A stretch of 64,000 bases of DNA, from contig CAWKDC010000001.1 in assembly GCA_963848305.1 (NCBI GenBank), forward strand, positions 22,490 to 86,489, read 5' to 3'. Positions 3,462 through 52,140 of the stretch are shown one piece after another. Both the position numbers and the translations under genes were made by a program. Source of the DNA: an uncultured Gammaproteobacteria bacterium. GTDB lineage: Bacteria > Pseudomonadota > Gammaproteobacteria > JABCZS01. The notes under the pieces were generated by a model. That model was not told where the DNA came from and did not search any database. It saw only the letters and a list, made by a program, of their open reading frames with translations. Each line of letters begins with the position of its first letter. Position 1 is the stretch's first letter.

Positions 3462-5350
3462 ATGAATCTGGCCTTGGGCGCTACGCATCTTGAAGGAAAC
3501 AACTGCCGATTTGTTCTTTGGGCCCCTCTGGCAGAACTTGTTCAAGTGCGTATTCTCGACGAACGAGACTCCGTCTCTCTGACTGGAGCCGTCTCACGGG
3601 GAAGCCACAAGGGCGGCCGATTAATTCCGCTGCAGAGAACGGACAGAGGTTATCACGAAGGGATCGTCGAGGGAATCCGGCCCGGAACACGGTACATTTA
3701 TTGCCTTGACGGCAATAAGGATCGGCCCGACCCCGCCTCGAGGTTTCAACCAGAAGGCGTCCACGGAGCTTCCCAAGTTGTTGACCCGCGAGCATTTCAA
3801 TGGAACGATGCACGCTGGCGCGGGCTCTCACTCGAAGACTACATCATCTATGAAATCCATGTGGGGACCTACAGTAGCGAGGGAACGTTCGACGCCATTA
3901 TTCCCTATCTTGATGAAATAAAAGGATTGGGAGTTACGGCGCTTGAGTTGATGCCTGTGGCCCAGTTCCCAGGCGATCGCAATTGGGGTTACGACGGAGT
4001 TTATCCCTTTGCCGTCCAGAATAGTTATGGTGGCCCTGAGGGGTTGCGGAGGCTGGTTGAAGCCTGCCACGAGCACGAACTGGCTGTCGTGCTCGATGTG
4101 GTCTACAACCACTTGGGCCCGGAAGGGAATTACCTCGGCGACTTTGGACCCTATTTCACAGACCGATACCGGTCCCTTTGGGGTCAAGCCCTAAACTTCG
4201 ACGGCCCGGAAAGTGACGAAGTCGTCCGATTTTTCATTGAGAATGCTCTCTACTGGCTACGGGATTTTCACATCGATGCTCTTCGCTTAGACGCCATTCA
4301 TGGGATTGTGGATTGCAATGCTCAACCGTTCCTCTCGTTTACTGGCCCAGGCAGTGCACGATTTCGCCAAACAATCAGGCCGCAAGATTTATCTGATCGC
4401 GGAAAGCGACCTCAATGACGTGCGCTACATCCAGCCCACTCAATCGGGCGGATACGGGTTAGATGCCCAATGGAGTGATGACTTTCACCATGCTGTACAT
4501 ACCCTGCTCACCGGGGAAAAGTCCGGCTACTACCTGGATTTTGGTGGGATCGAGGACCTGGGAAAGGCCTTCGAAGAAGGCTTCGTATATTCCGGCCAGT
4601 TCTCCGCTTATCGGCACCGGCGCCATGGCAATTCCTCTCGTCACATTCCGGCGCGACAGTTCGTGGTTTTCGCCCAGAATCACGATCAGGTTGGCAATCG
4701 GGTATTTGGCGACCGGCTAAGCACCTGGTGTCCTTCGAGGCGTCGAAACTGGCGGCGGGGATGGTGATTCTCTCCCCCTACATTCCCCTGCTGTTCATGG
4801 GGGAGGAATGGGGTGAGACGGCCCCCTTTCAGTATTTCACCAGCCACTCGGACAGCGCCCTGATCGAAGCCGTGCGGCGCGGCCGGCGAGACGAATTTGC
4901 CGACTTTCGCTGGGAGGGCGAACCTCCTGACCCTCAAGCCGAGGCAGACCTTCTTGCGATGCAAACTGGATCACACCCTAAAGCAATCTCAACCCCATCG
5001 AACGCTCCAGGAGTTCTATCAGGAACTGATCAAGCTGCGGAAATCGCTGCGGGCTTTTGCCCGGCTCAGCAAGGAGCAGATGGAAGTGCGCGTCTTCGAG
5101 AGGGAGAAAGCCTTACAGATCCGCCGTTGGTGCGAAGACGATGAAGCGCTCATTTTGGCGAATTTCAGTGCCGAGCCCAGGACCATCCTCATGGCTGGTC
5201 TCAGCGGCAATTGGCACAAGCAGTTGGATTCGGCAGATCGCCGATGGAGGGGGCCAGGGAGCGTCGTTCCTTCGAGCTTCAATTCCACCGGCAGAAGCCT
5301 GTTTAAATCTGTGCCCAAAGTCTTTTATGGTATTTCAAAGGGCGGGGTGA
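3462..5350 (+). CDS. treZ: malto-oligosyltrehalose trehalohydrolase (TreZ, GH13), with at least three apparent frameshifts
   Basis: N-terminal E-set domain [11 protein letters not shown]13 core [24 protein letters not shown]...[16 protein letters not shown]...[10 protein letters not shown]; continues in ORFs 4300.., 4728.., 4897.. in other frames; the exact 3' end is uncertain. Confidence 0.75.
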
Positions 5351-5360
5351 CCTCAAAATT

Positions 5361-7893: not shown

Positions 7894-10770
7894 ATGGCCA
7901 CACTGCGGATTCCTCTGGCGACGTACCGGCTCCAGTTCAACGCGCAGTTTCGCTTCGAGCACGCGCGGGCGCTGGTGGATTACCTTGCACCAGCTTGGGG
8001 TGACGGATATCTACTCTTCGCCTCTGCTGCAAGCGCGGCGCGGAAGTCTGCACGGCTACGACGTCACCGATCCCTCCCACATCAATAGTGAAATTGGGAG
8101 CGAGCAGGACCTCGAGGCCCTGTCGGCGAAGCTCCAGGAACATCAAATGGGCCTCCTCCTGGACATCGTCCCGAACCACATGGCCGCCGGAAGCGAGAAT
8201 CCCTGGTGGATGGATGTCCTGGAAGACGGCCCCGGCTCTGCCTACGCTTCGTTTTTTGATATCGACTGGCACCCTCCCCGCATGATGCTCCAGAACAAAG
8301 TTCTTCTGCCGATCCTCCGCCACCCTTACGCCCAAGCGCTTGAGAACCAGGAACTCAAACTGGTTTTCGACCAGGGTGGCTTTTTCATCCAGTGTTTCGA
8401 TGCCAAGCTGCCCGTCGCGCCCAAAACCTACCTTCTGGTCTTGCAGCATCGGCTGGGCGAGTTGCAGCACAAGCTGGGCCTCCGACCACCCGGCGTTTCG
8501 GGAATTGGGAGGCATCTTCGCCGCCGCGACAAACCTTCCCGAGCGCGTTGCTCTTTCCACCGAAATGGCGGGGGAAAGACGCATGCAAAGGGAGGCCCTG
8601 AAGGAAAGGCTCTGGAAGCTGTATCAAGACTCGTCCGAAGTGCGGACCTTCGTCGATGAGAACGTGCGCATCTTCAATGGCCGGAAGAGGGACCCGGCCA
8701 GCTTTATGTTGCTTGACCGTTTGCTGGCCGAGCAGGCTTATGTGCTCTCATACTGGCTCTCCGCCAATGACGAAATCAACTACCGGCGATTTTTTACCAT
8801 CAATAATTTAGTGGGAGTCCGCGTGGAAGATCCCCTGGTGTTTGAAGCCACGCACGCCGTGATCCTGCGCCTTATCGAAAGAGGATTGGTGACGGGATTG
8901 AGGATCGACCACGTGGACGGCCTCCGAGACCCTCACGGTTATCTGCGCAGACTCCAGGAGCGCGTCGGAGGCAGTGCCGGAGACGATTCTCATCCGCCGT
9001 TTTATGTCCTCGTGGAAAAGATTCTCGCCTATGGCGAAAAGCTACCTCGCGAATGGCCGATCTGCGGGGCGACCGGCTATGCCTCCCTCAATGCTCTCAA
9101 TGGGCTTTTCGTCGACCTCCGACGGGTGCAAGAAACTCCACCAGATCTACGAATCGTTTATCGGCGCCACGATCCGGTATGAGGATCTGGTGTATGAAAA
9201 AAAGAAGGAGGTGATGGAAAGCCTCCTCGCCGTGGAGATGCGTTCACTGGGCCATTACCTGGCAATCCTGGCGGAACAGGACCGGTATGCGCGCGACTCT
9301 GCCCGCGGTGACCTTGCCAACGCTCTCACCGAGACCACCGCTTGCTTTCCCGTTTACCGGAGCTATATTCGGAGCTTCTCGGTGAGCGCGGAGGAACGCC
9401 GATACATTGAGAAGGCACTCGAGTGCGCTCGACGGCGGAATCCCGCGTCTAGCTTCGCAATGCTTTGATTTTGTCGCGACGTCCTTTTGTTGCGGGAAAG
9501 AGGCCATGTACAGCCCGAGCAGCGGGAAGCCAGACTGGCTTTTATTATGCGCTGGCAGCAGTTCACCGGTCCGATCATGGCCAAAGGGCTGGAGGATTCT
9601 GCCCTTTACGTTTACTACCCCCTGAGTTCGCTGAACGAGGTCGGCGGAGCTCCCGATTCCTCGGGAGTGCCGGCCGCCGAATTTCATGTATTCTGCCGCA
9701 ACCGGCAGAAGCACGGCCACACTCTGAATGCCACCTCCACCCACGACACCAAGCGCGCCGAAGATGTGCGCGCACGAATTAACGTGCTTTCCGAAGTTCC
9801 CGAAGAGTGGGATACGGCCCTCCAAAGCTGGACACGACGCAACATGGCCGAAGAAGATCCCGGTCGAACGGGCAAAAGGTCCCCGATCCTAACGAGGAAG
9901 TACCTCGTTTACCAGACCATGCTGGGGGCTTGGCCGCTGGACAAAGGGCGACATTTCCGCCTTCCGAAAACGGCTCCAGGATTACATGGTGAAAGCGGTG
10001 CGGGAGGCGAATGGTCCACACAGATTGGAGCCGCCCCAACGTCCGCCACGAGCAGGCGCTGATCCACTTCATTAAATCCATCACTCAGCCGTCGGAAGAC
10101 AACAAGTTTTTGCCCGACTTCCTTCGCCTGCAGCGGCAAGTTGCCTACTGCGGGGCGCTCAATTCCCTGGCCCAGCTTTTGCTCAAAATCACCGATTCCA
10201 GGGGTTCCGGATTTTTACCAAGGCTCTGAGCTTTGGGACTTCCGCCTGGTTGATCCTGATAACCGGGGTCCGGTGGACTTCGAAAAGCGGGTGCGCCTGC
10301 TGGCCGAGCTCCAGCGAGCAGGAGGAACAACGCGGCCGTTTGGACCTCATCAGGGACCTCCTTGACCACTGGCAGGACGGGCGCATCAAACTCTTTGTGA
10401 CCTCGACAGCCCTCAACTTTCGCCGGGATCACGCCCAAGCTGTTCCTGAAGGGCGATTACCAGCCATTGCACGGCGACGGGGCCCAAAAAAGAGAAGGTC
10501 TTTGCGTTTATGAGGCGTACCGAGGACGCCTGGGCGGTCACCGCCGTGCCAAGATTCGTCACGAAGCTGGCTTCCCGCCGGGCAGCCTCCCACGGGAGAA
10601 GGCGTATGGTCAGCCGGTACGGTGCTTCTACCTAAGGGGGCGCCGACGGATTGGGTCAATGTGCTGACCAGGCGAAAGCCTGAAGGTTCGCACTTCAAAG
10701 CAGGGAGCGCCCCTTGCCGCTGGCGGAGGTATTTGGTAAGTTTCCTGTGGCACTGCTTACAAGCGGGTAG
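7894..10770 (+). CDS. treY: malto-oligosyltrehalose synthase (TreY), with many apparent frameshifts
   Basis: Start [24 protein letters not shown] (TreY hallmark), [45 protein letters not shown]-terminus ...FPVALLTSG; the ORF fragments sit in at least seven frames. Confidence 0.75.
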
Positions 10771-17308: not shown

Positions 17309-17514
17309 CAACACAGTTCACTTAGCTGTCATCAGGGATTAAACAAATCTAATTACGTGCGAAGCACCTTGGAGTGCGAGTGGCAGCAGCCACCGCCTTC
17401 CGCCCGAGATTCATACGGGACTCGCACGAATGAAAGGCGGTGGCTGCTGCCACTCGCACTCCAAGGTGCTTCGCACGAGCCCATGTCAAAATGCGCGCTA
17501 AGTGAACAGTGTTG
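17309..17514. mobile_element. 206-bp MITE-like non-autonomous element, copy 1: 17-bp terminal inverted repeats, an internal 42-bp perfect-stem hairpin, a 10-bp target site duplication
   Basis: TIR caacacagttcacttagc / gctaagtgaacagtgttg; TSD cctctacgtc at 17299-17308 and 17515-17524; stem arms 17356-17397 and 17436-17477 are perfectly complementary; a near-identical copy lies at 39011-39216. Confidence 0.7.
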
Positions 17515-29091: not shown

Positions 29092-30879
29092 CTACTGCTG
29101 CTCCCAGGGGTCATGATAGGGCAATGGGTCAACAAAGATCTTGCCGGGATTCAGACGAGGGTACGTACCCATGATCAGATTCGATGTGCCAGCATCGTTG
29201 AAACCTCGGCCACTCGTAAAGATAGTGTAGCCGCCAGCCGAAAGACCGGACAGGCCAAGCCCTTGTGCCACCCAAGCGGACGTTTCATACCCGCGATACT
29301 CGAACGAGAAGTCCGGCAGCGGGGCCGTCGAACTCCTTGGATCGAGATTGTCCATCACGTGGGTTCCCTCGTGGCCAGCATTTATCGCCATGATGGTTTC
29401 GTTTGGATTCTTGCTCATGTCGAACGTAACTGCTGAGCCGACCGTTGCAGCAGCACCTAGCCCGCGCAGGTCGCCGGTCGTGACGGTCACTCCGTTATCA
29501 TCGCCTGCCTTGCCATAGGTCTTCAGAACTGCATCGAGCCTCGCACGCTCCTCGCTGCCCTTTCCGAAGCTGTTTCTCGCCGCTTTTATGTCGTCCAACG
29601 AATCCTTAAACTCTTTCTTGAAAGCCTTGAAATCAGCGTTACACTGTTTGTCAGATTTCTCGCAAGGGTTCTTGAAATCGTAGAGCCCGGTGGGATCGAC
29701 GCGAGTGGTGGGATTATTCCGGACATAAGCATACATATTCCAGGTCTGGGGGTCGCTGGGGTCGGCAGCGGCCAGGCCTGCCGGGTCGGGGGTGAGCCAG
29801 CGGCCGGCCAGGTCGTCATAGACCCGGTGCGGGGCCAATTTAAAATCGCCATCCCCCTCCTGAAACGCCGCCCACTCCCACTCCCATAAATTACCGGCCG
29901 TTTGCCACAACTGACCCCAGGGGTACCACAGTAAGTCCTCGGTCCAGTTCCCCAGATGGTTGGTGTCCTGGGTTGCGGAACCGAGAAAGTTGGGGTGCTG
30001 AAGATAGGTCTCGTTGTTGTCACGGGAATATGCTGCGATTTTCCGCCCCCCCGCTCGTACCTGGTCCACCCACAAGCTGCTGCCGTCGGCGTTCCCCAGC
30101 CAATCACCATTGGGAGCGAACAATGCGGACATGTTGGTCCACGGCACGGCATAGTAGACCTCTTGGCCGAAGGCATTATAAACTGCGCTGGAATTGGTTT
30201 CCCGCCCCTCGCCATCCCAGGAGAAGCTATTCGTGCCGTCACTGGTCAGATTCCCCGCGGCGTCGTAGCTGAAGCCGTCAATGCGATTCGGGTAATTGTT
30301 GTAAGTCAATACCGGGCAAGGGCCGTTCGTAGACCCGTTCATCAAGCAGGTCATGTTGCCGTAGGCGTCATAGCCAAAGGCGAGGTTATACGTGCTGTTG
30401 CCGCTCGCCTGCGCGCAAGCCAGGCGATTCACGCCGTCATAGACATACAAGGCCGAGTGGCTCATCGTGCTGTTCACCGCGTCCGTGAAAGTATAACCAA
30501 TCACGTCGCCGTTGTTGCCGCTCCCGGACGCGGACACGGGGCAGCCGGGCGGCGTACTGCCGCCGGGCAAAGAGTAATTATACCCCAGTGTATAGTACGC
30601 TCCGGGGTTGCCGCTGGTGCCCAACTGAATCTGGGTCGGCTGCATCCGGTTATTGTAGGAGTAGGTTTCCTGGCTGTTCGTGCACCCGGAACCCGCGCAG
30701 CCGTTGGTGAGACCGCTTAGCGCCCCCCAGGGAGTGTAGGCCGGCTGGCGCTCAGACACCCGTTCTTTGGTGTCTGCGATTCCCGAAGGGACGTTCTCTT
30801 CCGGCCCCGCACCGTCGAGAGTATACTCTTCTGCGCCATGCCCTTCTACCACCGCGTTTACAGTCCCGGTGAACTGCAA
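29092..30879 (-). CDS. RHS/YD-repeat protein C-terminal fragment with a variable C-terminal toxin domain carrying an HExxH motif (N-terminus lost at the IS junction)
   Basis: YD repeats (YVYDGVNRL, FGYDAYGNMT, FSYDAAGNLTSDG); RHS core end RWLTPDPAGL...NMYAYVRNNPTTRVDPTGL; about 210-aa tail with AINAGHEGTHVMD. Confidence 0.75.
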   Translation of the reverse strand: MQFTGTVNAVVEGHGAEEYTLDGAGPEENVPSGIADTKERVSERQPAYTPWGALSGLTNGCAGSGCTNSQETYSYNNRMQPTQIQLGTSGNPGAYYTLGYNYSLPGGSTPPGCPVSASGSGNNGDVIGYTFTDAVNSTMSHSALYVYDGVNRLACAQASGNSTYNLAFGYDAYGNMTCLMNGSTNGPCPVLTYNNYPNRIDGFSYDAAGNLTSDGTNSFSWDGEGRETNSSAVYNAFGQEVYYAVPWTNMSALFAPNGDWLGNADGSSLWVDQVRAGGRKIAAYSRDNNETYLQHPNFLGSATQDTNHLGNWTEDLLWYPWGQLWQTAGNLWEWEWAAFQEGDGDFKLAPHRVYDDLAGRWLTPDPAGLAAADPSDPQTWNMYAYVRNNPTTRVDPTGLYDFKNPCEKSDKQCNADFKAFKKEFKDSLDDIKAARNSFGKGSEERARLDAVLKTYGKAGDDNGVTVTTGDLRGLGAAATVGSAVTFDMSKNPNETIMAINAGHEGTHVMDNLDPRSSTAPLPDFSFEYRGYETSAWVAQGLGLSGLSAGGYTIFTSGRGFNDAGTSNLIMGTYPRLNPGKIFVDPLPYHDPWEQQ

Positions 30880-31466
30880 TTCATCACCACCAGCACCTAT
30901 CGCCGCACGCCCCTTTTCCTCTCGGATCGCTTTCGGCGCTGCTTTGTCCAGAGGCTGGAGGAGGTGCGGCAGGAATTACATTTCCTGCTCGTCGGCTGGG
31001 TTCTGATGCCCGAGCATTTTCATATGCTGATCAAGCCCGAGCCCGCCGAAACCACTCCCCTGATTATGAAGGGGCTCAAGGAGGAATCGGCCAAGCGCAT
31101 CATCAGAACACTTCGGGAAAACCTTCGGTATCCTTGGTGCCGGAAGACGCTCGCCAGGCTGCGGCTGCCCTCCACGGTTCACGATGAATCACACTACCGC
31201 CTCTGGCAGCGCCGCTTTTACCCCTTCAATGTCTTCTCCGAAAAAAAATTCCAGCAGAAATTGGACTACATGCACAACAACCCGGTGACGCGCGGGCTGG
31301 TGAGTTCCCCCGGCGACTGGCCGTGGTCAAGCTGGAGGTTCTACTATTTGCAGGATGCGTCAATTCTCCGCATGGATCGGATGCGCTGAGCTCAACTTAC
31401 CAGAAGTCCCTTCGGGAGATCGCAGACTCCAAAGAGCCGAAGTCTGCGCCAGCCCCGTGTCTGGAA
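30800..31466 (+). mobile_element. IS200/IS605-like element carrying a REP-associated tyrosine transposase (left boundary approximate)
   Basis: RAYT gene plus a subterminal hairpin cgcagactccaaagagccgaagtctgcg; the 3' 240 bp is duplicated at 28158-28398. Confidence 0.65.
30838..31389 (+). CDS. REP-associated tyrosine transposase (RAYT, IS200-like Y1 HuH transposase)
   Basis: HuH motif MPEHFHMLIKP; YRLWQRRFY; DYMHNNPVTRGLVSSPGDWPWSSWRFY, which matches the RAYT signature. Confidence 0.8.
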   Translation: MPFYHRVYSPGELQFITTSTYRRTPLFLSDRFRRCFVQRLEEVRQELHFLLVGWVLMPEHFHMLIKPEPAETTPLIMKGLKEESAKRIIRTLRENLRYPWCRKTLARLRLPSTVHDESHYRLWQRRFYPFNVFSEKKFQQKLDYMHNNPVTRGLVSSPGDWPWSSWRFYYLQDASILRMDRMR

Positions 31467-31728
31467 ATGGTTGAGTGATCTTTACAATCGTGCCTGAGAG
31501 AGCCGGCGCGGCGATCTCCGCGGCAATCTTCCCGGCTGCCAGCCTACCCATCAAGTCCTGACCGAGGCTCACGAACAACGAAAATGGAATAAGGAATTTG
31601 ACCGAGGCGCTAAGCCAAAGCCAGTAGCGGACTTGGGCGCGATTCTTGCGGAAGGCGAGCGTCAGCAGCCCCACCACAACCGCAAACACCGTTGATTGCC
31701 ACAAATGGTTCGTCACCTCAGCGATCAT
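31360..31728 (-). pseudogene. blaR1/mecR1-family sensor (peptidase M56) N-terminal remnant, truncated by the IS
   Basis: MIAEVTNHLWQSTVFAVVVGLLTLAFRKNRAQVRYWLWLSASVKFLIPF is a typical BlaR1 N-terminus; the reading frame runs into IS-derived sequence after about 87 aa. Confidence 0.6.
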
Positions 31729-32125
31729 TTCGATTCATGCTTCCTTTCTGCTTGTGTTCGAGATCAAGCTTCTTGATGGTCTTCTCCAACTCTCGAACGT
31801 CATCAAGGGTGAGCTTCCCCGCTTCGGCCAACTGCGCCATCATGGGTTGAGCCTGCCCTCCGAAGAAACTCAGAATGTCGTCAAGGAGCCGGCGGCGTGC
31901 CACGTCCCGGGGCACCGTCGGTTCGAAAATATGAGCGTTGCCGATCTTCCGGACTCGGCGCACTGCCTTCTTGCCCTCCAGCCGGTACACCGTGGTCTGG
32001 ATGGTGGTGTATGCCGGCCGAGGCTCCGGAAACGACTCCTGGATCTCCCGAATGGCTGCCTTTCCATGGGTCCATAGGACTTCGAGGATTTGGAGTTCGA
32101 GCTTGGTCAATTTTGGTCGGGCCAT
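31718..32125 (-). CDS. BlaI/MecI/CopY-family transcriptional repressor
   Basis: MARPKLTKLELQILEVLWTHGKAAIREIQE...YTTIQTTVYRLEGKKAV winged-helix N-terminus plus a C-terminal dimerisation helix; the internal start at 32125 is preferred (GAAGG RBS). Confidence 0.7.
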   Translation of the reverse strand: MARPKLTKLELQILEVLWTHGKAAIREIQESFPEPRPAYTTIQTTVYRLEGKKAVRRVRKIGNAHIFEPTVPRDVARRRLLDDILSFFGGQAQPMMAQLAEAGKLTLDDVRELEKTIKKLDLEHKQKGSMNRNDR

Positions 32126-32150
32126 GTGCCTTCTACTATTCTCCATCTAA

Positions 32151-32988: not shown

Positions 32989-34461
32989 GTGCGGCAACCA
33001 GAAAAGGCGACGGTGGGAGTATTCGGGATTGGGCTGGCGGCATACTGGCCACAGTTCCACGGGCTCAAGGAGCGGCTGGAAGGCTACCAGCGCAAGGTGG
33101 AACAGCGCATCGGCCAATGGGCCACGGTCGTCAGCGCCGGCCTGGTGGACGACACTCCCAAAGGTCTCCAAGCCGGTGAAGCCTTTCGTCGCGCGAGCGT
33201 CGATCTGGTTTTCTGCTACGTCGGCACCTACGCAACTTCCTCCACCGTATTGCCCGTCATCCAACACGCCAAGGCGCCCGTGGTGGTTCTGAACCTGCAA
33301 CCACGCGCCGCGCTCGATTATGCGCACACCGATACGGGCGAGTGGCTGGCCAACTGCTCCGCCTGCTGCGTTCCGGAAATCTCCGGAGCGTTTGCCCGCG
33401 CGGCCATTCCCTTCCGGCAAGTCACCGGCATGCTCGACCCGGAACCCGATGTGCGCGAACCGAGCGAATCCGCGTGGAGCGGAAATCGAGGAATGGTGCG
33501 CCGCCGCCAGGGTGGTTCACAATCAGCGCCGGGCTCGCATCGGATTCCTCGGGCACCCCTACCCCGGAATGCTCGATATGTACAGCGACTTCACCCAGCA
33601 CCAGGCGCAACTGGGGACGCACATCGAAGTTGCTGGAAATGTGCGACCTGGAGGCGCGCGTGAGCGCCGCCACGGATGCCGAGATCGCGCGCAAGGCGGA
33701 GGAGACGCGCAGCATCTTTGACATCAGTGAGGACAGCCCGTCCGACCCGCTGGCGAAAAAGCCCGCCCCGGAGCAGATGGATTGGGCCTGCCGCGTTGCC
33801 GTGGGGCTCGATCACCTGGTGGAGGATTTTGACCTCGACGGCCTGGCCTACTACTACCGCGGCGTGGGCGGCAACATGTATGAGCGGATCTGGGCGCGGC
33901 GTGATCCTGGGATGCTCGCTGCTGACCGCGCGCGGAATTCCCTGCTCCGGTGAAGCCGATCTGAAAAATTGCCAGGCGATGAAGATCATGGACCTGCTGG
34001 GCGCGGGAGGCAGCTACACGGAGCTTTACGCCATGGACTTCCGCGAGCGCTTCATCCTGATGGGCCACGACGGCCCCTTCCATCTGGCCATCGCCGAAGG
34101 CCGGCCGATCCTGCGCGGGCTCGGCCTCTACCATGGCAAATCGGGATTCGGCGTCAGCGTGGAAGCCAGCGTGCGCAAAGGCCCCATCACCATCCTCGGC
34201 CTCACCCAAACCTGCGATGGCCGGCTGAAATTTCTCGCGGCCGAAGGCGAATGCCTCGCCGGCGAGCGGCTGAAGATCGGCAACACCAACAGCCGCCTGC
34301 GATTCGCGCTTGAACCCGCGCCGTTCATCAATGCCTATTGCAGCGAGGGGCCTACCCACCATTGCGCGCTGGGCGTCGGCCACGTCCTGGGCAAGCTTAA
34401 GAAGGTGTCATGGCTCACGGGGCTGGAACTGAAAGTCATCGGGCCGACGAGCGGGCAATAA
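32989..34461 (+). CDS. L-arabinose isomerase family protein (AraA-like), with about three frameshifts
   Basis: N-terminus VGVFGIGLAAYWPQF...VDLVFCYVGTYATSS...VVVLNLQP; the C-terminal part RFILMGHDGPFHLA...NAYCSEGPTHHCALGVGH; fragments in three frames. Confidence 0.5.
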
Positions 34462-34777: not shown

Positions 34778-35242
34778 ATGGCATTGAGTCGCTTTTTCCG
34801 AGATTCCGGACACTTGATTCGTCCCGCGCTGGTCCTGCTGGCGGGAGTGGTTATCTTTCTGATTATCCGTGCCGCTGTGGTGCCCAAAGACTTTGGGAAA
34901 TATGGACACTACCGGGCGGGTGCGCTTGACATGATCGCCGCGCTCCCCATTGCCTATGCCGGCGGAAGCCAATGCGCCCTCTGCCACGACCAGGAAGCCA
35001 AGGTGCATGACGGGGGTAAGCATGCGAGTGTGCATTGCGAGGCCTGCCACGGCCCCCTGGCCAAACACGCTGACGATCCCGTCGCCAATGTGCCCAAGCT
35101 GCCCGACGTAGCCAACCTCTGCCGGCGCTGCCATGAAAAAGACGCCGCCAAGCCGAAAGGCTTTCCCCAAGTGGATACGGTCGCGCACTCCCAGGGCATG
35201 CTTTGCAACACTTGTCACCAGCCGCACAATCCGCACCTCTGA
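34778..35242 (+). CDS. membrane-anchored tetrahaem cytochrome c (NrfH/NapC-like)
   Basis: N-terminal TM helix LVLLAGVVIFLIIRAAVV; four CxxCH motifs (CALCH, CEACH, CRRCH, CNTCH) in 154 aa. Confidence 0.7.
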   Translation: MALSRFFRDSGHLIRPALVLLAGVVIFLIIRAAVVPKDFGKYGHYRAGALDMIAALPIAYAGGSQCALCHDQEAKVHDGGKHASVHCEACHGPLAKHADDPVANVPKLPDVANLCRRCHEKDAAKPKGFPQVDTVAHSQGMLCNTCHQPHNPHL

Positions 35243-35258
35243 GGGAGGAGTTAGAAGC

Positions 35259-35999
35259 ATGGAATTCAGCAGGCGAGACCTCTTCAAGATTGGCGGAAAA
35301 ATCCTGGTGCTGGCCTCCACCGGCGCCACGCTCGAACAGATCATGGGCGCTGCCCCTGCGCCTGAAGCCTACCGGAGGGCGGACCACTGGTGGGGCATGA
35401 TCATCGACATCGACAAGTGCATTGGCTGCGGAAGCTGTGTGCGCGCCTGCTCGCAGGAGAACCACGTGCCCGCCGGGTACTTCCGGACCTGGGTGGAGCG
35501 GTATCAGGTGGAGGAAGGAAAGCAGCCCATCGTCGACTCGCCCAATGGAGCGATGGAGGGCTTCCCCGTCGCTACGCGCGCGGGCCTCAAGAGCTTCTTC
35601 GTTCCCAAACTTTGCAACCACTGCGCCGATTCCCCATGCGTGCAGGTCTGCCCGGTGGGTGCGACGTTCCTGAGCCCGGATGGCGTCGTCCTGGTGGACA
35701 CGACCTATTGCCTTGGCTGCCGGTATTGCATCCAGGCTTGCCCGTATGGCTGCCGTTACCTGCATCCGGAAAAACATGTGGTGGATAAGTGCTCGCTCTG
35801 CTATCACCGCATTACCAAGGGTCTCACCACCGCCTGCTGCGAGAACTGTCCCACAGGGGCGCGCCAATTGGTGGATTTCAAAAACCCCAACGATCCCGTT
35901 CACGAGTTCCTGCGCAATAACAAAGTCGAGGTGCTGAAGCCGTATATGGCCACGGGAGCGAAGGTCTACTACAAGGATCTGGATGGCGCGGTGCGATAA
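35259..35999 (+). CDS. Tat-exported 4Fe-4S ferredoxin-type subunit (NrfC/PsrB/HybA/DsrO-like)
   Basis: MEFSRRDLFKIGG twin-arginine signal; four Cys clusters CIGCGSCVRAC, CNHCADSPCVQVC, CLGCRYCIQAC, CSLCYHRI; GAGGGAGGAG RBS. Confidence 0.8.
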   Translation: MEFSRRDLFKIGGKILVLASTGATLEQIMGAAPAPEAYRRADHWWGMIIDIDKCIGCGSCVRACSQENHVPAGYFRTWVERYQVEEGKQPIVDSPNGAMEGFPVATRAGLKSFFVPKLCNHCADSPCVQVCPVGATFLSPDGVVLVDTTYCLGCRYCIQACPYGCRYLHPEKHVVDKCSLCYHRITKGLTTACCENCPTGARQLVDFKNPNDPVHEFLRNNKVEVLKPYMATGAKVYYKDLDGAVR

Positions 36000-36011
36000 A
36001 GGAGCGAAGCA

Positions 36012-37063
36012 ATGATTCCTGGCGTTGAAGGCTTCATGTACCCCAACGAGGTGGAGTTGCAGTGGGGCCTGCTCATTGTGCTCTACCCTTACATCACCGG
36101 GCTGGTGGCCGGCGCCTTCATCCTGGCGTCGCTCGAGCGCGTCTTCAAGGTGAAAGGCCGTGCGGCCCACTTACCGCCTGGCCTTGCTGACGGCGCTCGG
36201 CTTCCTGCTGGTAGCGCCCCTGCCCCTGCAATTGCACCTGGGGCATCCCGAGCGCTCCATGGAGATGTACCTCACGCCCCACGCGATCCTCGGCCATGGC
36301 CATGTTCGGTTTTGTGTACTTGTGGTACCTCATGGTGGTGCTGCTGCTCGAGGTCTGGCTGGAGTACCGCGCGGACATCGTGCACCTGGCGCAAACCACC
36401 ACTGGCGTTCGGCGACTCATCTACAAACTGCTCACCCTGGGGTCGATGAATGTCAGCCCCGAGGCGCGGCGAATCGACGAAAAGGTCAGCTACGTGGTTA
36501 CCGTCATCGGCATCCCCTCGGCGTTTCTGCTGCACGGGTACGTGGGATTTATCTTCGGCTCGGTGAAGGCCAATCCCTGGTGGTCCACTCCCCTCATGCC
36601 CGTCGTGTTCCTCTTCTCGGCGATGGTTTCAGGCATTGCGGCGGTCCTGGTGCTGTACATGGCCTTCATGAAGGTGGAGAAGATGTCCATCGACATGCCG
36701 TGCCTCGACACCATTGCCAAATACCTCTTTTACACCTTCGTCATCGACTTCTCGCTGGAGATGCTGGATCTGGTGCATCGCACCTACGAGGCCGATGAAT
36801 CCTTCCGCTCCCTGGATTTCATGGTGCACACACGATTGTGGGGATCGCAAGTGATTCTCCAGATCATCGTGGGTACGCTGGTGCCCCTGACGATCCTTGC
36901 GGCCAACCAGCTTTGGCGGTTCTCGGAAGTTCGCCGCAAGGCGATGTATCTCATTGCCTCTCTGCTGACCCTGATTGGCATCTTCGCCATGCGCTGGAAC
37001 GTGGTGATCGGGGGCCAGTTGTTTTCCAAGAGTTTCCTTGGGATACACCTCTTACAAAGTTGA
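36012..37063 (+). CDS. NrfD/PsrC-family polytopic membrane quinone-interacting subunit, with two frameshifts
   Basis: Pieces in ORFs 36012.., 36160.., 36296..; hydrophobic helices and the conserved NrfD-like N-terminus (ELQWGLLIVLYPYITGLVAG). Confidence 0.65.
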
Positions 37064-37103
37064 ATTCGCAGCCAAGGAAGGCTTGCTGCCGGCCATCGGA
37101 TTA

Positions 37104-37181
37104 ATGATTCTGCCCTTCGTAATCGTCGTTGCCCTGGTGAAGCTTCTGCCCCCATGGGAAGGGGAAGCCAGCAAGGTCTAA
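37104..37181 (+). CDS. possible 25-aa single-TM micro-protein after the NrfD-like gene
   Basis: MILPFVIVVALVKLLPPWEGEASKV; no RBS verified. Confidence 0.2.
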   Translation: MILPFVIVVALVKLLPPWEGEASKV

Positions 37182-37191
37182 AGGAGCTGCC

Positions 37192-38912
37192 ATGTTGCAG
37201 GCAGATCTGGACGAACTGCGCCAGCAGGTTCGCGATCTTACGAACCGTATCTCTCGTCTGGAGGAATCTCTCGCGCCCCGCGAGAGCGTGACGCCCGACC
37301 CGGGAAGCAGAGCCTCCTCGCCCTGCCCGAGGATCCCGGACATCCTCTCGCAAGTTCCCGACACCACTTCCGTTCTCCCGGTTCTCGGAGGCGGGCTTCT
37401 CGGCTTGGCAGGCGCCTACCTGCTGCGGGCCATCGCCGAATCGGGAGCCCTTCCACCGAGGGCGGTCTTCACGCTGGGAACCCTCTACGCCGTGGCCTGG
37501 CTGCTCTGGGCGGCGCGAGTTCCCGTCGAACGCCGGTTCGCGCACCACCTTGTACAGCCTCACGTCCGTGCTGATCCTTTCACCGCTGCTTTGGGAGTCC
37601 ACGCTGCGCTTTCACATCATCACCACTGCGGAGGCCAGTGTGATTCTCATGGCCTTACACCCTGATCGGCCTGGCGGTATCCTGGCAGAGGGACTTGCTG
37701 ATCGTTGCCACCATTACTACCCTCGCGGGCCTGACCACGGCCGGCGCGCTGCTGATCGCCACGCACGACGTGCTGCCCTTCACCTTTGTCTTCCTGGCCA
37801 TCGCTGCGGCGGTGGAAGTGTGCGCTTGCCTCAACCACTGGCTGGGTGAGCGGTGGCTGGCGGCGGCCGCCGCCAATCTTTCCGTCCTGCTGGCCACCTG
37901 GCTGGTCACCAATCCCCGCGGCCTTCCGGAGGTCTACGCGCCCATTCCGGTACGCGCCCTGTTCGCCGCGCAAATGGCGCTGGTGGCCATCTACCTCTCC
38001 AGCGTTATGGTGCGGACCCTCCTGCGCGGCCTTGCCTTTACTAATTTCGAAACCGGGCAATGCGCTCTGGCCTTTGTGATTGGCGTCGGAGGCGCACTTC
38101 GCTTGTCCGCGGGCGGTGCGCACATCGCTCCCGCCCTGGGGGCATTCGCGCTGGTGTGCGGCGCGGCATGTTACGCGATCTCGTTCATGGTGCTGGAACG
38201 CCACGGCTCGCACGGCCGCAACTTTTACACCTACTCGACCTTCGGAATGCTGTTAGTCCTGGTCGGCTGCCGAATCCTGTTGAATGACGGCGCGGCCGCG
38301 GTCGTATGGTCCGCACTGGCCATAGCGTGTATCGGCGCGGGCGGGCTCTGGGCCAGGCTGACGCTGGAAATTCACGGCGGCATTTATCTGGTACTGGCGC
38401 TCGCGCTCTCGGGCGCCTTCCAGCAAGCCGCAGGGTTTCTCTTGGGAGCCGATCTCTGGCCCGGTTCGGCCCCTACGGCGCTCTGGATCGGCGCGGCGGT
38501 GGCCGGAGCCAGTTACCTGCTGGCCGTGCGGTTCACTCCCTCTCTCAGCGGCTGGAATTTCCGCGCCCTCCGCGTGGCCGTTGCAGCCGTCCTGGTTTGG
38601 GTGGTGTTGGGCCTTTCGGCGGGAGGCCTGACCGGTATTTATCACGGACTCTTCGGTTTCGAAGCCGGAAACCCCTATTGCGCAACCCTGCGGACCGGCG
38701 CCGTGACAGCCGCTGCCGTGCTGCTGGCCTTGGCGGGTTCCCGCCCCTACTTCAGCGACCTTGCTCAATTGGTTTATCCTCTCATGCTCCTGGGCGCCTA
38801 TCGCCTGGTCGCCGACGATATGCACCAGGATCGCAAGGCCGTCCTGTTCCTCTCGCTGCTGCTTTATGGCGCCGCGCTCATGGCGATACCTCGTCTCCGG
38901 CGTTCTGGGTAG
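37192..38912 (+). CDS. DUF2339-like polytopic membrane protein with an N-terminal coiled coil (two frameshifts)
   Basis: MLQADLDELRQQVRDLTNRISRLEESL followed by more than 10 predicted TM helices across three frames. Confidence 0.45.
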
Positions 38913-39010: not shown

Positions 39011-39216
39011 CAAAACTGTTCACCTAGCTGTCGTCAGGGATTAAACGAATCTAGTTACGTGCGAAGCACCTTGGAGTGCGTGTGGCAGCAGCCACCGCCT
39101 TTCATTCGTGCGAGTTCCGTATGAATCTCGGGCGGAAGGCGGTGGCTGCTGCCACACGCACTCCAAGGTGCTTCGCACGAGCCCATGTCAAAATGCGCGC
39201 TAAGTGAAAAGTGTTG
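39011..39216. mobile_element. MITE-like element copy 2 (206 bp), inserted at the stop codon of the acyltransferase gene
   Basis: Co-linear with 17309-17514 apart from a few substitutions and an inverted 38-nt loop; TSD gggctaggcgg / gggctagccgg at 39000-39010 and 39217-39227. Confidence 0.7.
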
Positions 39217-46017: not shown

Positions 46018-46838
46018 TTAACCGCCGCGCCGCGCAATTCCACTGCCCCTCCCGTCCCTGGGTCCCCGCCTGTGCCCCATCACATCGAGGAGCGAGAGAG
46101 CCATAAACTGGGGGCCGTAGATCAAGGCCCGTCGCCAGACGGTGCGGGGCTCATGCAACAATCGCCATAGCCATTCCAAGCCGGATTGGCTGGCCCAGCG
46201 CGGAGCCGGAACAACTCTTCCACTGTGAAACTTGATCGCCGCCCCGACCGCGACGATCACCGGCGCCTTCAGCCGGTCGCGGTGGGCGACAATCCACCTC
46301 TCCTGTTTGGGAAGCCCCAGCGCCACCCAAAGCACATCGGGGTTAGCCTGATTAATCATTTCAATGACTTGCGCGTCTTCTTCGGGAGTAAGCTGGCGAA
46401 AAGGGGGCGAATAGGCGCCGACAATCTGTACCCCCGGGTGCTTCTGCCGCAGCCGGTTGCTCGCCGAGCGTCAGGGTTTCATCCGTATCACCGTAGAAGT
46501 AATTGGTGATATCCCTTCTCGCGGGAAAGCTCACAAAATGCCGACATTAAATCCGCCCCGCGAACCTGATGGGTGGCACAGGACATTTTTTTGGCCGCAA
46601 CCCGGGCAGCCCAGCGCCCGTCCGGCACGGAAAGGTCGGCGGTATGGAGAACGGCACGGAAATCGGGGTGCTTGTGCGCCTCAAGCGCCCCGTGCGAACC
46701 CGTCACCGCGATCCAATGGGGCTGGCGACGCTCCCGGATCCATTGCTCCATCAAGCGCAAGACAGACTTAATGTCAATAATATGAACGGGCGCTCCGAGA
46801 ACCTCGGTGCAGGGCGGGAGCCCGGCCTGTTCGGTCAA
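46018..46838 (-). CDS. WecB/TagA/CpsF-family glycosyltransferase (GT26), with two frameshifts
   Basis: N-terminal piece (ORF 46488..46838) and C-terminal piece (46018..46359: LGLPKQERW...) in different frames. Confidence 0.6.
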
Positions 46839-47575
46839 AAGGTTGCGCTTCCATATTCATGTTGGACTACGGTAACTTTCGGCCGCGCGGCACCCATTAG
46901 CCCTTTACCCCGAATGGCTGGCGCTTCGCACGGGGGCTTGCCTACCGGCGCCATTCGCTTTTTTGAGGCCCGCCGCCCGCCCAGCAACCGTGGCAGCTTT
47001 GCTGAGCGCTCTTCCCATTTTCCGGTAAAGGTCACGAGGAAGGAGATGAAAACCAGGCGAAGGTCCAACCAAAAGCTTTGCTTCTTGATGTAGACAAGAT
47101 CGTAACGGAGCTTCTGGCGGCGGGGCAATTCGCTGTGGCCATAAATCTGAGCGATTCCGGTAAGCCCTGGGGTAACGGCGTGACGGCGGTCGAACCCGGG
47201 TATTTCCACCCGAAATTTCTTCACCAGTTCCGACCACTCGGGCCGAGGTCCGACAAAACTCATGTCACCGCGGAAGATATTCCAAAGCTGCGGAAGCTCG
47301 TCCATCGCCGTGGCACGCAGAATCCGGCCCACGCGCGTAATTCGCGGATCGCGTTCGGTGGCCGGAACGACTCCCCACTTGGCATCCGAATCCGGCACCA
47401 TGGAGCGGAACTTGACGCTTTGGAATTCCTTGCAATCCTTCCCCACGCGGGGTTGGCCATAGAAAATGGGACCGCCATCCTCGATCTTAATGGCAACGGC
47501 AATCGTCGCCCAAATCGGCGAAGAAACAATCAAGCCGAGTCCGGAAAGCGAAATGTCAAAGATGCGTTTGAGCAT
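46835..47575 (-). CDS. polyprenyl-phosphate sugar-phosphate transferase (bacterial sugar transferase, priming enzyme)
   Basis: [19 protein letters not shown]...[26 protein letters not shown]...[21 protein letters not shown]. Confidence 0.8.
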
Positions 47576-49378: not shown

Positions 49379-50293
49379 TCAAAACCCTGTCACCTGCGAC
49401 TGGAGCAACTCCTGGCCACGCCCAGATATCTGTATATTGAACTCGCCCAATCGTTGGCCTTCCTTGAGGTAATGCGCCAGACCGACCATCCAATGGGGAA
49501 GGGCGCCCAGATGATTTTCAATCAAGCGACGATTTTCCAGCACGGAATACGCCGGCCGAGGGGCCCTTCGTCCGGATTCCTGAGTCGAAATCGGTACCAC
49601 GCGCACTCGCTTCAGTCCCGCCAATTCTACGATCGACTGGGCAAATTCAAACCAACTACAGTTCCCCGCCCCTGTCGCGTGGTAGATTCCGTAAGCTTCG
49701 GTTCGCATCATCTCTGCAAGCTTCAAAGCCAAGTGGTGCGTATACGTCGGGGAGCCCCGTTGGTCACTCACCACCCGAAGCTCGTCACGCTCCATGGCAA
49801 ATTTGACAATCGTGGCCACAAAATTCTTGCCGCGCGGCCCGTACAGCCAAGAAGATCTGACAATGAAGTACCGCTTGAGCAACGACTGCACGTGACATTC
49901 GCCCCCCAACTTCGACTGGCCGTAAACGCTGAGGGGATGGGTGGCGTCATCCTCCCGATAGGGTCTTTCCGATGATCCATCAAATACATAGTCGGTGCTA
50001 ACGTACAGCAAAATCGCGCCGCTTTCGGCACAAGATCGCGCCAGATTCCGCGTCCCCTGGGTATTGACCTCGTCGGCCAACCGGGGGTTCGCTTCACAAC
50101 CGTCGACATCCGTGTAGGCAGCGAGGTGATACACAAAATCCGGCCGCAAATCCCGAAAAGCCTTTTGAACCGCGGCCTCATGAGAGATGTCAAAATCGTT
50201 GAGGTCCACGCCCACAACTTCGTGTTCGCTCCCCAGGCATGGCAGCAGCGCATTCGCCAGCATTCCCTTGGCGCCCGTGACAAGAACGCGCAC
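49379..50293 (-). CDS. rfbD: dTDP-4-dehydrorhamnose reductase
   Basis: MRVLVTGAKGMLANAL...STDYVFDG...YGQSK. Confidence 0.8.
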   Translation of the reverse strand: MRVLVTGAKGMLANALLPCLGSEHEVVGVDLNDFDISHEAAVQKAFRDLRPDFVYHLAAYTDVDGCEANPRLADEVNTQGTRNLARSCAESGAILLYVSTDYVFDGSSERPYREDDATHPLSVYGQSKLGGECHVQSLLKRYFIVRSSWLYGPRGKNFVATIVKFAMERDELRVVSDQRGSPTYTHHLALKLAEMMRTEAYGIYHATGAGNCSWFEFAQSIVELAGLKRVRVVPISTQESGRRAPRPAYSVLENRRLIENHLGALPHWMVGLAHYLKEGQRLGEFNIQISGRGQELLQSQVTGF

Positions 50294-51340
50294 TACTTTC
50301 TTCCTCCGCGGTTGAGCACTTTCTTCATCGTGGAATCCCGACGATCATACTGCTGGCGGTAATATGCACGATAGGCGCGCGCCGTCACGCGCCTTATCCA
50401 TTCACCGTTGGAAAGGTACCAGTCAACAGTTTGCTTCAGTCCATCTTCCAAGGTTATTTGCGGCCCCCAACCCAATTCCTTTTTTGCCTTTTCGCTGTTG
50501 AGGGCGTACCGGCGGTCATGACCGGGGCGATCCTGCACATAGGTCAGCAAGGAATCGGGCTTTGCCGACAAGCTGCAAAATACGGCGCGCGATTTCAAGG
50601 TTGGGCCATTCGTTCCCGGCGCCCAGATTGTAAATCTCTCCGTCACGGCCCTGGTGCAGGGCAGCATCCAGCCCTGCGCAATGATCCATGACATGGATCC
50701 AATCCCTGATCTGTAGCCCGTCCCCGTACACAGGAATATTCTCCCCCTGAAGTGCACGGGTAATAATGAGTGGGATGAATTTCTCCGGGTACTGGTAGGG
50801 GCCGTAGTTATTTGTGCACCTTGTGATAATAACCGGAAATCGGTAAGTACGGAAGTAGGCACGAGACAGGAGGTCGGCGCCGGCTTTACTGGCCGCGTAA
50901 GGGCTGTTGGGGGCGATAAGGGATTCCTCCGTGAACTTTTCGCCGGAGGGAGCGCTTCCGTACACCTCATCGGTGCTTACCAGGATAAACCGTTTGACTC
51001 CCGCGTGACGGGCGGCGTCGAGCAAGCACTGAGTTCCGAGAACATTCGTTTTAACGAAGGCGGTGCTATCTAGAATGCTCCGGTCAACGTGGGATTCGGC
51101 CGCGAAATGGACGACCGCGTCAACCCCCTTCAAGACTTCCCGAGCTTTACTGCGATCACCAATGTCTCCGCGTACAAAAGCGTGCCGTTTGTTCTTTTCC
51201 AAATCCCGCAGGGTATGAAGGTTGCCGGAGTAGGTCAGCTTGTCCAGATCTAGAATTGAATACCCGGAGTGGTGCGCAAGGATGTAGCGAATAAAGTTCG
51301 AACCGATGAATCCTGCTCCCCCTGTGACCACGAGCTTCAT
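50293..51340 (-). CDS. rfbB: dTDP-glucose 4,6-dehydratase (one frameshift)
   Basis: MKLVVTGGAGFIGSNF...VHFAAESHVDRS...YAASKAGAD...PGHDRRYALNSEK. Confidence 0.8.
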
Positions 51341-51414
51341 TTCTAGCCCTCTATTTCTATATGGAGTTAAACGGGTATTCCAAGACCGTGACAAAGTACT
51401 TGGGCCTTGAGAAG

Positions 51415-52140
51415 CTATGGATGCGGCATGCCATCTGCCACCAGGTTCGTTGCCAATCGGAGTGACTCGAAAGTCCCCGCGTCCGTCCACCAGCCTTCCA
51501 AAATGCTGTGAGTTAAGGTGCCTTCCCGCAAATAGGCATTGTTGACATCGGTTATTTCCAGCTCGCCGCGATGGGAAGGTTTGAGTCGGTTGGCCTTTTC
51601 GAATACCGTTGCGTCATAGAAGTAAACACCGGTGACGGCAAAATGACTTGCCGGGGATGCCGGCTTTTCTTCGATGCGGGCAATCCTGTCCCCATCAAAC
51701 ACCGGGACGCCAAACCGTTCGGGGTTGGAAACTTCCTTGAGGAGGATGTGTGCCCCATTGGGTTGCTGCACAAATTTCTCGGCAGCCTGCTTGATGCTTC
51801 CCTCCAGAATATTGTCACCAAGAATCACGCAAATCCTTTCACCTTCCGCAAAAGCCTCAGCCAGCCGAAGAGCATCGGCGATCCCGCCTTCCCCCTCTTG
51901 ATAGGCATAATTCAGACGCTTCAGTCCAAATTCCTTCCCATTGGCCAGCAATCGCAGGAAGTCGCCAGCGTTGCGTCCTCCGGTAACAATGAGGATCTGT
52001 TCGATTCCAGCATTTACCAGTGTCCGGAGGGGATAATAAATCATAGGAGCGTCGTATACCGGCAGCAAGTGCTTATTGGTAACTTTTGTCAAAGGGAACA
52101 ACCGCGAACCTGTTCCACCTGCCAGAATGACACCCTTCAT
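51415..52140 (-). CDS. sugar-phosphate nucleotidyltransferase, glucose-1-phosphate thymidylyltransferase-like (short form)
   Basis: MKGVILAGGTGSRLFPLTKVTNKHLLPVYDAPMIYYPL...GDNIL...WTDAGTFESL. Confidence 0.7.
   Translation of the reverse strand: MKGVILAGGTGSRLFPLTKVTNKHLLPVYDAPMIYYPLRTLVNAGIEQILIVTGGRNAGDFLRLLANGKEFGLKRLNYAYQEGEGGIADALRLAEAFAEGERICVILGDNILEGSIKQAAEKFVQQPNGAHILLKEVSNPERFGVPVFDGDRIARIEEKPASPASHFAVTGVYFYDATVFEKANRLKPSHRGELEITDVNNAYLREGTLTHSILEGWWTDAGTFESLRLATNLVADGMPHP

Follow-up and report, generated by a model that had tools for sequence, protein, structure and literature searches.

What can an operon do that encodes a cytochrome, an iron-sulfur (FeS) protein, and a quinone-type membrane subunit but no enzyme for them to serve? 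This question is raised by positions 34778 to 38912 of a 64,000-nucleotide stretch of DNA from an uncultured Gammaproteobacteria bacterium (GenBank assembly GCA_963848305.1, contig CAWKDC010000001.1), referred to here in its full length as the window. An earlier note on this DNA had described a tetraheme cytochrome, an FeS subunit exported by the twin-arginine translocation (Tat) system, and an NrfD-type membrane subunit, followed by a very small open reading frame (ORF) and a further membrane protein. We now read the locus, at a probability of about 0.6, as a self-contained four-gene operon that passes electrons from the quinone pool to periplasmic cytochromes, in the manner of the Cbc4, Nhc, and SirCD systems.

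The four genes are tightly packed on the + strand and form one operon, with intergenic gaps of 16, 12, and 10 nt and strong Shine-Dalgarno sites (GGGAGGAG, AAGGAG, and AAGGAG). All three genes of the module described earlier are present, although NrfD is not the one clean ORF that this description implied. Gene 4 had been left outside the module and proves to be a conserved fourth member of it. The features of the locus are as follows.

34778..35242, + strand: membrane-anchored tetraheme cytochrome c, 154 amino acids (ORF translation, one hydrophobic segment, four CxxCH motifs)
35259..35999, + strand: Tat-exported periplasmic FeS subunit of the NrfC/PsrB/DsrO type, 246 amino acids (Fer4_11, PDB match, motifs)
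36012..37181, + strand: NrfD/PsrC-like integral membrane subunit, ~388 amino acids after frame repair (tblastn, PF03916)
37104..37181, + strand: 25-codon "micro-ORF," the C terminus of NrfD and no separate gene (tblastn frame alignment)
37192..38912, + strand: gene 4, a divergent relative of DUF2339 (PF10101), ~572 amino acids (tblastn in three frames, reconstruction)
39058..39179, no strand: inverted repeat with perfect 44-nt arms and a 34-nt loop (repeat search)

Conserved gene order and a predicted electron route

The gene order is kept far beyond the window. At four related loci (L001 to L004), a cytochrome of 152 to 169 amino acids, an FeS protein of 246, and an NrfD of 392 to 395 are followed by an unannotated protein of 551 to 580 amino acids, and the flanks are unrelated. 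An alignment scan with gene 4, limited to one genome per species, returned 140 relatives, from which 80 loci were kept; all but three are labelled Acidobacteriota (Bryobacterales, Solibacteraceae, Terriglobia). All four genes stand in order at 61 of these 80 loci. A further 13 are cut by a contig end, with NrfD still directly upstream in seven, and the remaining 6 have a full upstream flank without the module. In 68 of the 74 assessable loci, NrfD is the gene immediately 5' of gene 4, most commonly at a gap of 10 nt, and the same four-gene order is found at L087 to L089 and L091, where gene 4 is only 41 to 45% identical to that of the window. All-against-all ORF clustering revealed no other same-orientation neighbor in more than ~11 of 82 loci. 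The doubt raised earlier, that the operon structure might not be conserved in relatives, is thereby removed. The operon is widespread in Acidobacteria of peat and acidic soil and is annotated only as "hypothetical," without a characterized member. On the metagenome contig L091 (positions 1 to 2148), a second, different pair of FeS and NrfD genes (the latter encoding 436 amino acids) lies ~3.4 kb upstream of the operon and may belong to another NrfD-type complex.

The FeS protein lies, as proposed, between the cytochrome and NrfD and is marked for export. Its N terminus reads MEFSRRDLFK, with the twin-arginine motif SRRDLF at residues 4 to 9, and its cysteine groups (CIGCGSCVRAC, CNHCADSPCVQVCP, CLGCRYCIQACP, and CSLC...CCENCP) are enough for four [4Fe-4S] clusters. 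The protein contains Fer4 domains only and matches Fer4_11 at 86.6 bits. Its closest relative in the PDB is PsrB (2vpw_B; E = 3e-42), and the B subunits of alternative complex III (ACIII) are distant matches (E of ~1e-14 to 1e-16). It therefore has the features of a four-cluster Tat ferredoxin of the NrfC/PsrB/DsrO/TtrB type. None of its NCBIfam scores reaches the respective cutoff (TtrB, 189.6/416; DsrO, 164/200; NrfC, 134.8/377.6; QrcC, 104.5/400; HmcB, 93.3/420).

The third gene was correctly assigned as an NrfD-type integral subunit. The pieces of NrfD in the window match PF03916 at 83.2 bits (36296 to 37063) and 25.0 bits, against a gathering cutoff of 25.8, and the intact homologue at L004 scores 133.7 bits. 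The 388-residue reconstruction has eight strong hydrophobic segments by hydropathy, which leaves 8 and 10 transmembrane helices both possible, and contains no CxxCH motif and no cysteine clusters. Scores for the membrane subunit are again below the NCBIfam cutoffs (DsrP, 35.6/350; NrfD, 50.2/347.6). This subunit presumably provides the quinol/quinone site.

The cytochrome is tethered differently from what the term "NrfH-like," used of it earlier, would suggest. It does have an N-terminal anchor, a transmembrane helix at about residues 13 to 35, and four CxxCH motifs, at C66, C87, C115, and C143, and thus resembles the small, N-terminally anchored tetraheme cytochromes of the NapC/NirT/NrfH/CymA group. 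In that group, the quinol site places heme 1 near the anchor with non-histidine ligation (CxxCHxM or vacant). In the window cytochrome, by contrast, a flexible linker (about residues 36 to 60) precedes the heme domain, so that the first CxxCH, at residue 66, lies ~25 to 30 residues past the anchor rather than next to the membrane. This motif reads CALCHDQ, and no CxxCHxM motif occurs anywhere in the protein. Neither the window cytochrome nor its L004 homologue matches PF03264 (NapC/NirT/NrfH, Cytochrom_NNT), even at a maximum E value of 10, and the only Pfam matches are subthreshold ones to cytochrome c3/c7. In an AlphaFold2 (AF2) model, residues 2 to 34 form a helix and residues 38 to 60 are of low confidence (mean predicted local distance difference test [pLDDT] score of 68.7; hemes not modelled). 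A Foldseek search of the PDB with this heme-free, low-confidence model gave nothing significant, the match to NrfH (2j7a_C) having an E value of 2.1 and a TM-score of 0.25.

More than 1400 homologues of the cytochrome were found, mostly 68 to 94% identical; the few names available for their sources read mostly "hypothetical protein," with some Bryobacteraceae. When 46 homologues were aligned, the four CxxCH motifs and H82, H97, H137, and H150 were invariant. These four residues are candidate distal histidines, one per heme. Since there are four such invariant candidates and no CxxCHxM motif, the alignment points to four bis-histidine hemes and a helix that serves as an anchor only. The cytochrome is thus probably not a second quinol site. 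The suggestion that the module pairs two alternative quinol-interacting components is not borne out, because the cytochrome fails the NapC/NirT/NrfH model.

Taken together, the three subunits suggest the following route. The cofactor-less NrfD-like subunit would bind menaquinol on the periplasmic side of the membrane and oxidize it there. Electrons would then run along the Tat-exported FeS subunit, through its four [4Fe-4S] clusters, to the four bis-histidine hemes of the cytochrome, held by its N-terminal helix and flexible linker. From there, they could move on to periplasmic acceptors, soluble or outer ones, whose genes lie elsewhere; examples would be other cytochromes, metal- or humic-reducing systems, and terminal reductases or oxidases. 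Such an operon would lack no catalytic subunit, because its "substrate" would be another redox protein.

The closest described architecture is that of Geobacter Cbc4. In Geobacter sulfurreducens, Cbc4 (CbcS-CbcT-CbcU, GSU0068 to GSU0070) consists of an anchored tetraheme cytochrome c, a protein with four [4Fe-4S] clusters, and a membrane subunit (bioRxiv 10.1101/2025.04.14.648717). Its proposed activity is that of a quinol:cytochrome c oxidoreductase. As published, CbcS has an anchor (residues 1 to 29), an unstructured linker (residues 30 to 58), and four bis-histidine hemes, the arrangement of the heme core being reported as NapC/NirT/NrfH/CymA-like. The subunit inventory is identical to that of the window core, no catalytic enzyme is present in either, and the layout of the window cytochrome and its invariant histidines match CbcS. 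The two differ in that Cbc4 is from another phylum and that its published descriptions include no fourth, DUF2339-like gene.

Two further systems are built on a similar core. The NhcABCD/Hmc family of Desulfovibrio combines a cytochrome c, a protein with four [4Fe-4S] clusters, an NrfD-like subunit, and a further membrane subunit, likewise without a catalytic enzyme, and links cytochromes of the periplasm with the quinone pool (PMC8076601). NhcD is listed as the fourth subunit; NhcA, however, has nine hemes, in contrast to the four CxxCH motifs of the window cytochrome, and Nhc is thought to reduce quinone. In Shewanella, the SirCD pair (FeS and NrfD-type) is described as able to replace CymA as quinol dehydrogenase (PMC11434368). 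For the idea that an NrfCD pair can serve as quinol dehydrogenase in general, SirCD provides the best functional precedent, although it is described as SirC plus SirD, with no mention of an anchored tetraheme cytochrome or DUF2339-like partner.

Larger complexes share only portions of this plan. ACIII (ActABCDEF) and QrcABCD also have a membrane-anchored periplasmic heme subunit, an FeS module, and one or more NrfD-like subunits. ACIII is a quinol:cytochrome c oxidoreductase, and Qrc is a cytochrome c:quinone oxidoreductase. The window locus differs from both in having no molybdopterin-like ActB1/QrcB, a single NrfD-like subunit, and no ActD, ActE, or ActF. Similarly, DsrJOP (of DsrMKJOP) and NrfBCD (of NrfABCD) show the arrangement of cytochrome c, Tat FeS protein, and NrfD-like subunit, whereas DsrM (cytochrome b), DsrK (CCG FeS protein), and NrfA are absent from the window and the loci inspected. 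The earlier comparison, that the module resembles DsrJOP, Qrc, and ACIII and matches none of them, agrees with the subthreshold equivalog scores but overlooked the published Cbc4, NhcABCD, and SirCD architectures. The three-gene core is a new representative of a known kind of complex, one that has itself no assigned function. What makes the locus new as a whole is its conserved DUF2339-like fourth gene and the module-swapping behavior described below.

Several points weigh against this assignment. The function of the family is read from sequence and analogy, and the likeness to CbcSTU is drawn from its published description rather than from sequence orthology. Cbc4 itself is without an assigned physiological role, and deletion of cbcS gave no iron or manganese phenotype. 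Single-sequence and profile searches of PDB sequences with NrfD gave no match. Finally, NrfD is frame-broken in the window and in both syntenic contigs to which it was compared (L005 and L006), and two of the indels involved are shared.

Peat and acidic soils harbor Bryobacterales and Solibacteraceae as two of their most abundant bacterial groups, and little is understood about how flexibly these bacteria respire. If the operon encodes a quinol:cytochrome c hub, electrons bound for Fe(III), humics, or other acceptors of the periplasm could enter there in anoxic soils rich in carbon.

Gene 4 and its exchangeable neighbors

Gene 4 belongs to a large family. In total, 859 homologues were found, and an HMMER search returned 2283 clusters at 50% identity (E ≤ 1e-3), with 1063 at E ≤ 1e-30; the best 150 clusters are nearly all full length, at ~570 amino acids. 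The protein P0121 is 95% identical to gene 4 of the window, and its AF2 model (pLDDT, 85; predicted template modeling score, 0.72) consists of an N-terminal helix (residues 3 to 27), a disordered segment (residues 30 to 56), and then 18 helices of transmembrane length. The N-terminal helix is cytoplasmic and coiled-coil-like. The model has no solved structural relative, its fold matches being generic helical repeats only, and hhalign comparison of four segments detected no significant internal sequence repeats.

The relationship with DUF2339 is remote. The gene-4 fragments of the window have no Pfam match, and PF10101 scores 22.2 bits (E = 7e-5) and 7.5 bits on intact homologues, below the gathering cutoff of 33.6. 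The two families share an N-terminal helix followed by many transmembrane segments and a weak colinear match over ~480 residues, but the clade of the window scores beneath the Pfam gathering threshold. Because 22 of 45 distant members of the HMMER-defined gene-4 family match PF10101 at E ≤ 0.01 (best, 2.7e-12), sequence comparison points to gene 4 being a divergent relative within the DUF2339 superfamily, outside the curated family. The earlier description as a DUF2339-like polytopic protein thus stands in a weakened form, for a single frameshifted gene (37192 to 38912) with a subthreshold Pfam score. In the 12 papers found to mention DUF2339, the term is absent from titles and abstracts and occurs once or twice in the full text only.

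Conserved polar residues of gene 4 include E135, R220, R274, E286, Q289, R342-N343, H394, and D542. No motif for heme b, FeS clusters, or another redox cofactor was found in it. The idea that gene 4 is a cytochrome b was rejected, as only one histidine is invariant in the close-family alignment and none across the wider family.

The genes next to gene 4 differ between genomes in an informative way. In two metagenome-assembled genomes that are ~95% identical (L017 and L018), gene 4 is 88 to 90% identical to that of the module-bearing loci L004 and L014, and yet it is preceded, again at a gap of 10 nt, by genes for a 70-residue monoheme cytochrome c, a Rieske protein, a cytochrome b, and a nine-heme cytochrome c with a C-terminal anchor. 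In L017 (2286 to 7792; same coordinates in L018), ~2.4 kb encoding most of the cytochrome, the FeS protein, and NrfD has been replaced with a cassette of ~3.3 kb. The first ~115 nt of the tetraheme cytochrome gene survive upstream as a remnant, and blastn places the boundaries of the swap at the end of this remnant and 17 nt 5' of gene 4. Gene 4 itself is a full ORF in both genomes, with an excess of synonymous differences between them (47:28), which indicates that it is under purifying selection after the swap.

Two other settings were found. The most distant homologue, at 35% identity, is in L090 (366 to 7392), between an upstream pair encoding a divergent MtrA-like decaheme cytochrome and an MtrB/PioB-like porin and a downstream gene with PF03264 on record (precomputed Pfam match), a NapC/NirT cytochrome. 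This is a porin-cytochrome locus for extracellular electron transfer. In L044 and L055, clusters of cytochrome b, Rieske, and multiheme cytochrome c genes lie within ~1 to 5 kb downstream of gene 4 in convergent orientation. In L044 (5929 to 13333), the gene-4 paralogue follows a sigma-54 activator-like gene, and the convergent downstream genes encode a cytochrome b6-like protein and a 685-residue multidomain cytochrome c. Given the contexts in L017/L018, L090, and L044/L055, three mechanistically different quinol:cytochrome c modules recur beside the gene-4 family.

Gene 4 is cotranscribed with the core. Its most likely role is that of a membrane subunit, accessory or scaffolding, that works with quinol:multiheme-cytochrome modules in general. 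We tentatively extend this to a dedicated partner of such oxidoreductases, one that could be combined interchangeably with NrfCD, Rieske/cytochrome b, or NapC/NirT modules. Possible roles would be a scaffold that docks single-helix cytochrome anchors or an additional ion-conducting element. The link between gene 4 and the complex is drawn from gene neighborhood alone, and the paralogues at L044, L050, L066, and L073 (~52% identity), of which L044 was inspected in detail, have no module directly upstream; both points weigh against the idea. The paralogues also leave some room for gene 4 to be a passenger with no functional tie to the redox module, such as an envelope protein or one of membrane stress, that is only transcribed along with it. 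The absence of redox-cofactor motifs, the single invariant histidine, and the generic helical-repeat fold would suit such a protein, and we regard it as a possible, if doubtful, explanation. A passenger would not be expected to keep NrfD directly 5' in nearly all assessable loci, mostly at the same 10-nt gap, to stay intact through the exchange of the upstream module, or to recur beside three different quinol/cytochrome modules.

If gene 4 is indeed a partner subunit, Acidobacteria of soil and peat would have in this operon a respiratory complex that is both new and widespread, and gene 4 would give DUF2339 its first function. The cassette swap and the MtrAB/NapC-type context already provide a first functional context, and a testable hypothesis, for DUF2339-like proteins.

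Direction of electron flow and the search for a catalytic partner

The route proposed above runs from menaquinol to cytochrome c. We infer this direction, along with the physiological acceptor and any energy coupling, and the same complex could run in reverse as a Qrc- or Nhc-like cytochrome c:menaquinone reductase, possibly an electrogenic one. Electrons from periplasmic oxidations (of H2, formate, Fe(II), or reduced humics) would then enter the quinone pool. NhcABCD and QrcABCD, which have the same FeS and NrfD-like core, are described as TpIc3:quinone oxidoreductases (PMC8076601), and the MtrAB/PioAB-like genes at L090 could equally serve Fe(II) oxidation. We nevertheless consider reverse flow unlikely. 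The Rieske/cytochrome b module that takes the place of the core in L017 and L018 normally oxidizes quinol, SirCD and, as proposed, Cbc4 act as quinol dehydrogenases, and no hydrogenase or formate dehydrogenase is encoded nearby.

The absence of a catalytic partner bears on a second alternative, in which the module serves one particular terminal reductase of the periplasm, encoded at another place in the genome, as its quinol-dehydrogenase arm. Candidate enzymes would be multiheme reductases of the NrfA/Mcc/Otr type or a sulfur-compound reductase. There are precedents in NrfBCD, MccCD, and SirCD, and the best NCBIfam matches of the FeS subunit are TtrB, DsrO, and NrfC. Every one of these equivalog scores is below its cutoff, however, and the flanks examined across dozens of genomes contain no such enzyme or any other catalytic redox enzyme, gene 4 being the only recurrent neighbor. 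A dedicated arm therefore appears quite unlikely, and the general quinol:cytochrome c route remains our preferred reading.

Within the window, Pfam scans detected neither a molybdopterin gene nor any other catalytic one, be it in the 5 kb around the module or among the large ORFs. The statement that no catalytic partner lies within 5 kb can accordingly be extended to the large ORFs of the whole 64-kb window. It had been suggested that such a gene might be obscured by a frameshift just beyond the module. No such gene is concealed by the frameshifts. A hidden catalytic subunit is rejected, since Pfam scans of the flanks and large ORFs and the gene calls on the syntenic contigs show other genes only. 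The genes around the operon encode BlaI/BlaR, IS200, an unknown 489-residue protein, exopolysaccharide and glycogen functions, and LeuA.

Single-base insertions and the surroundings of the operon

The NrfD gene is spread over three reading frames by 1-nt insertions near 36152 to 36159, 36283 to 36286, and 37038 to 37043. In tblastn searches with intact homologues, NrfD residues 1 to 49 aligned to 36012 to 36158, residues 48 to 110 to 36154 to 36327, residues 69 to 343 to 36218 to 37042, and residues 333 to 388 to 37011 to 37175, each piece in the next frame. Deletion of one base each near 36159, 36283, and 37043 gives a 388-residue NrfD that ends at the stop codon at 37181 and keeps all of the ~230 positions at which 30 family members do not vary.

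The 25-codon hydrophobic ORF at 37104 to 37181 is a frameshift artifact, the last 25 codons of NrfD, because frame repair reads through it to the stop at 37181. A gene for a small hydrophobic peptide is ruled out here, as the ORF aligns to the NrfD C terminus: residues 333 to 388 of the L001 and L004 proteins fall in the micro-ORF frame. Its residues ...LPFVIVVALVKLLPPW... are conserved across the NrfD family, and the C-terminal residues of NrfD that it encodes read ...GLMILPFVIVVALVKLLPPWEGEASKV.

Gene 4 carries five 1-nt insertions. Those at ~37292, ~37320, and ~37340 compensate for one another, and those at ~37541 to 37543 and ~37653 to 37657 shift the frame; dropping one base at each of the latter two sites restores a protein of 572 amino acids.

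The origin of these insertions was examined in a 17.5-kb three-way alignment of the window with the syntenic metagenome contigs L005 and L006, both ~97% identical to it. Twelve +1 insertions in this alignment are private to the window (seven at 36152 to 37653, four at 46464 to 46885, and one at 33632), which has no private deletion. L005 and L006 carry indels of their own, which are partly different; their NrfD is called in two pieces, and their gene 4 is intact at 571 amino acids. An extra A at 36286 is common to the window and L005. An extra G in a G run at 36444 is common to L005 and L006; this is the one site at which a base is missing from the window alone, and the window is in frame there relative to L004. 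These two indels, shared between independent assemblies, could be systematic sequencing error or a true polymorphism. After frame repair, synonymous outnumber nonsynonymous differences from L005 in the cytochrome (12:1), FeS (21:5), and gene-4 (38:19) genes.

The window indels look like long-read assembly errors and not gene decay, since they are private to the window, the indels of its siblings differ, and synonymous changes dominate. That the operon of this organism is instead a decaying pseudogene cluster with real frameshifts is very unlikely: NrfD is split in all three sequences, with the two indels shared pairwise as just described, and seven of the twelve private insertions are bunched at 36152 to 37653, but every private event is a +1 insertion, neither stops nor deletions occur among them, other window genes (46464 to 46885 and 33632) are also affected, the reconstructed NrfD retains every family-invariant residue, substitutions are mostly synonymous, and the contig names and source are consistent with long-read metagenome assemblies. 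The micro-ORFs and "split" genes of this window are therefore best taken as products of 1-nt insertion errors. Many pairs of overlapping same-strand ORFs elsewhere in the window (for example, at 4897 to 7653, 7985 to 10062, and 50293 to 52140) suggest the same problem throughout.

The inverted repeat at 39058 to 39179 starts 146 nt 3' of gene 4. A near-identical second copy is located 22 kb away, at 17356 to 17477, and the element is also present in L005 and L006. It is a repeated palindromic element, similar to repetitive extragenic palindromic sequences or miniature inverted-repeat transposable elements, and a candidate terminator of the operon. A scan of the locus for promoter and terminator consensus sequences gave nothing informative.

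Upstream of the operon, the region from 29092 to 32146 encodes an IS200/IS605-type Y1 transposase (30838 to 31389) and a BlaI-type repressor (31718 to 32146). A BlaR1/Peptidase_M56-like gene accompanying these two was identified by synteny with L005 and L006. Directly upstream and on the same strand, at 32989 to 34461, lies a 489-residue ORF that is intact in L005 and frameshifted in the window; its product has a weak Fucose_iso_C match only, and other genomes do not conserve the gene beside the operon. On the other side of the operon, a large downstream cluster for exopolysaccharide or cell surface glycan occupies 39220 to 63559 on the opposite strand. It encodes an acyltransferase_3 protein, two FkbM methyltransferases, a GT2 protein, a Wzx-like flippase, RmlD, and a dehydratase, together with a Wzz/tyrosine kinase pair, a Wza-like exporter, and a UDP-glucose dehydrogenase.

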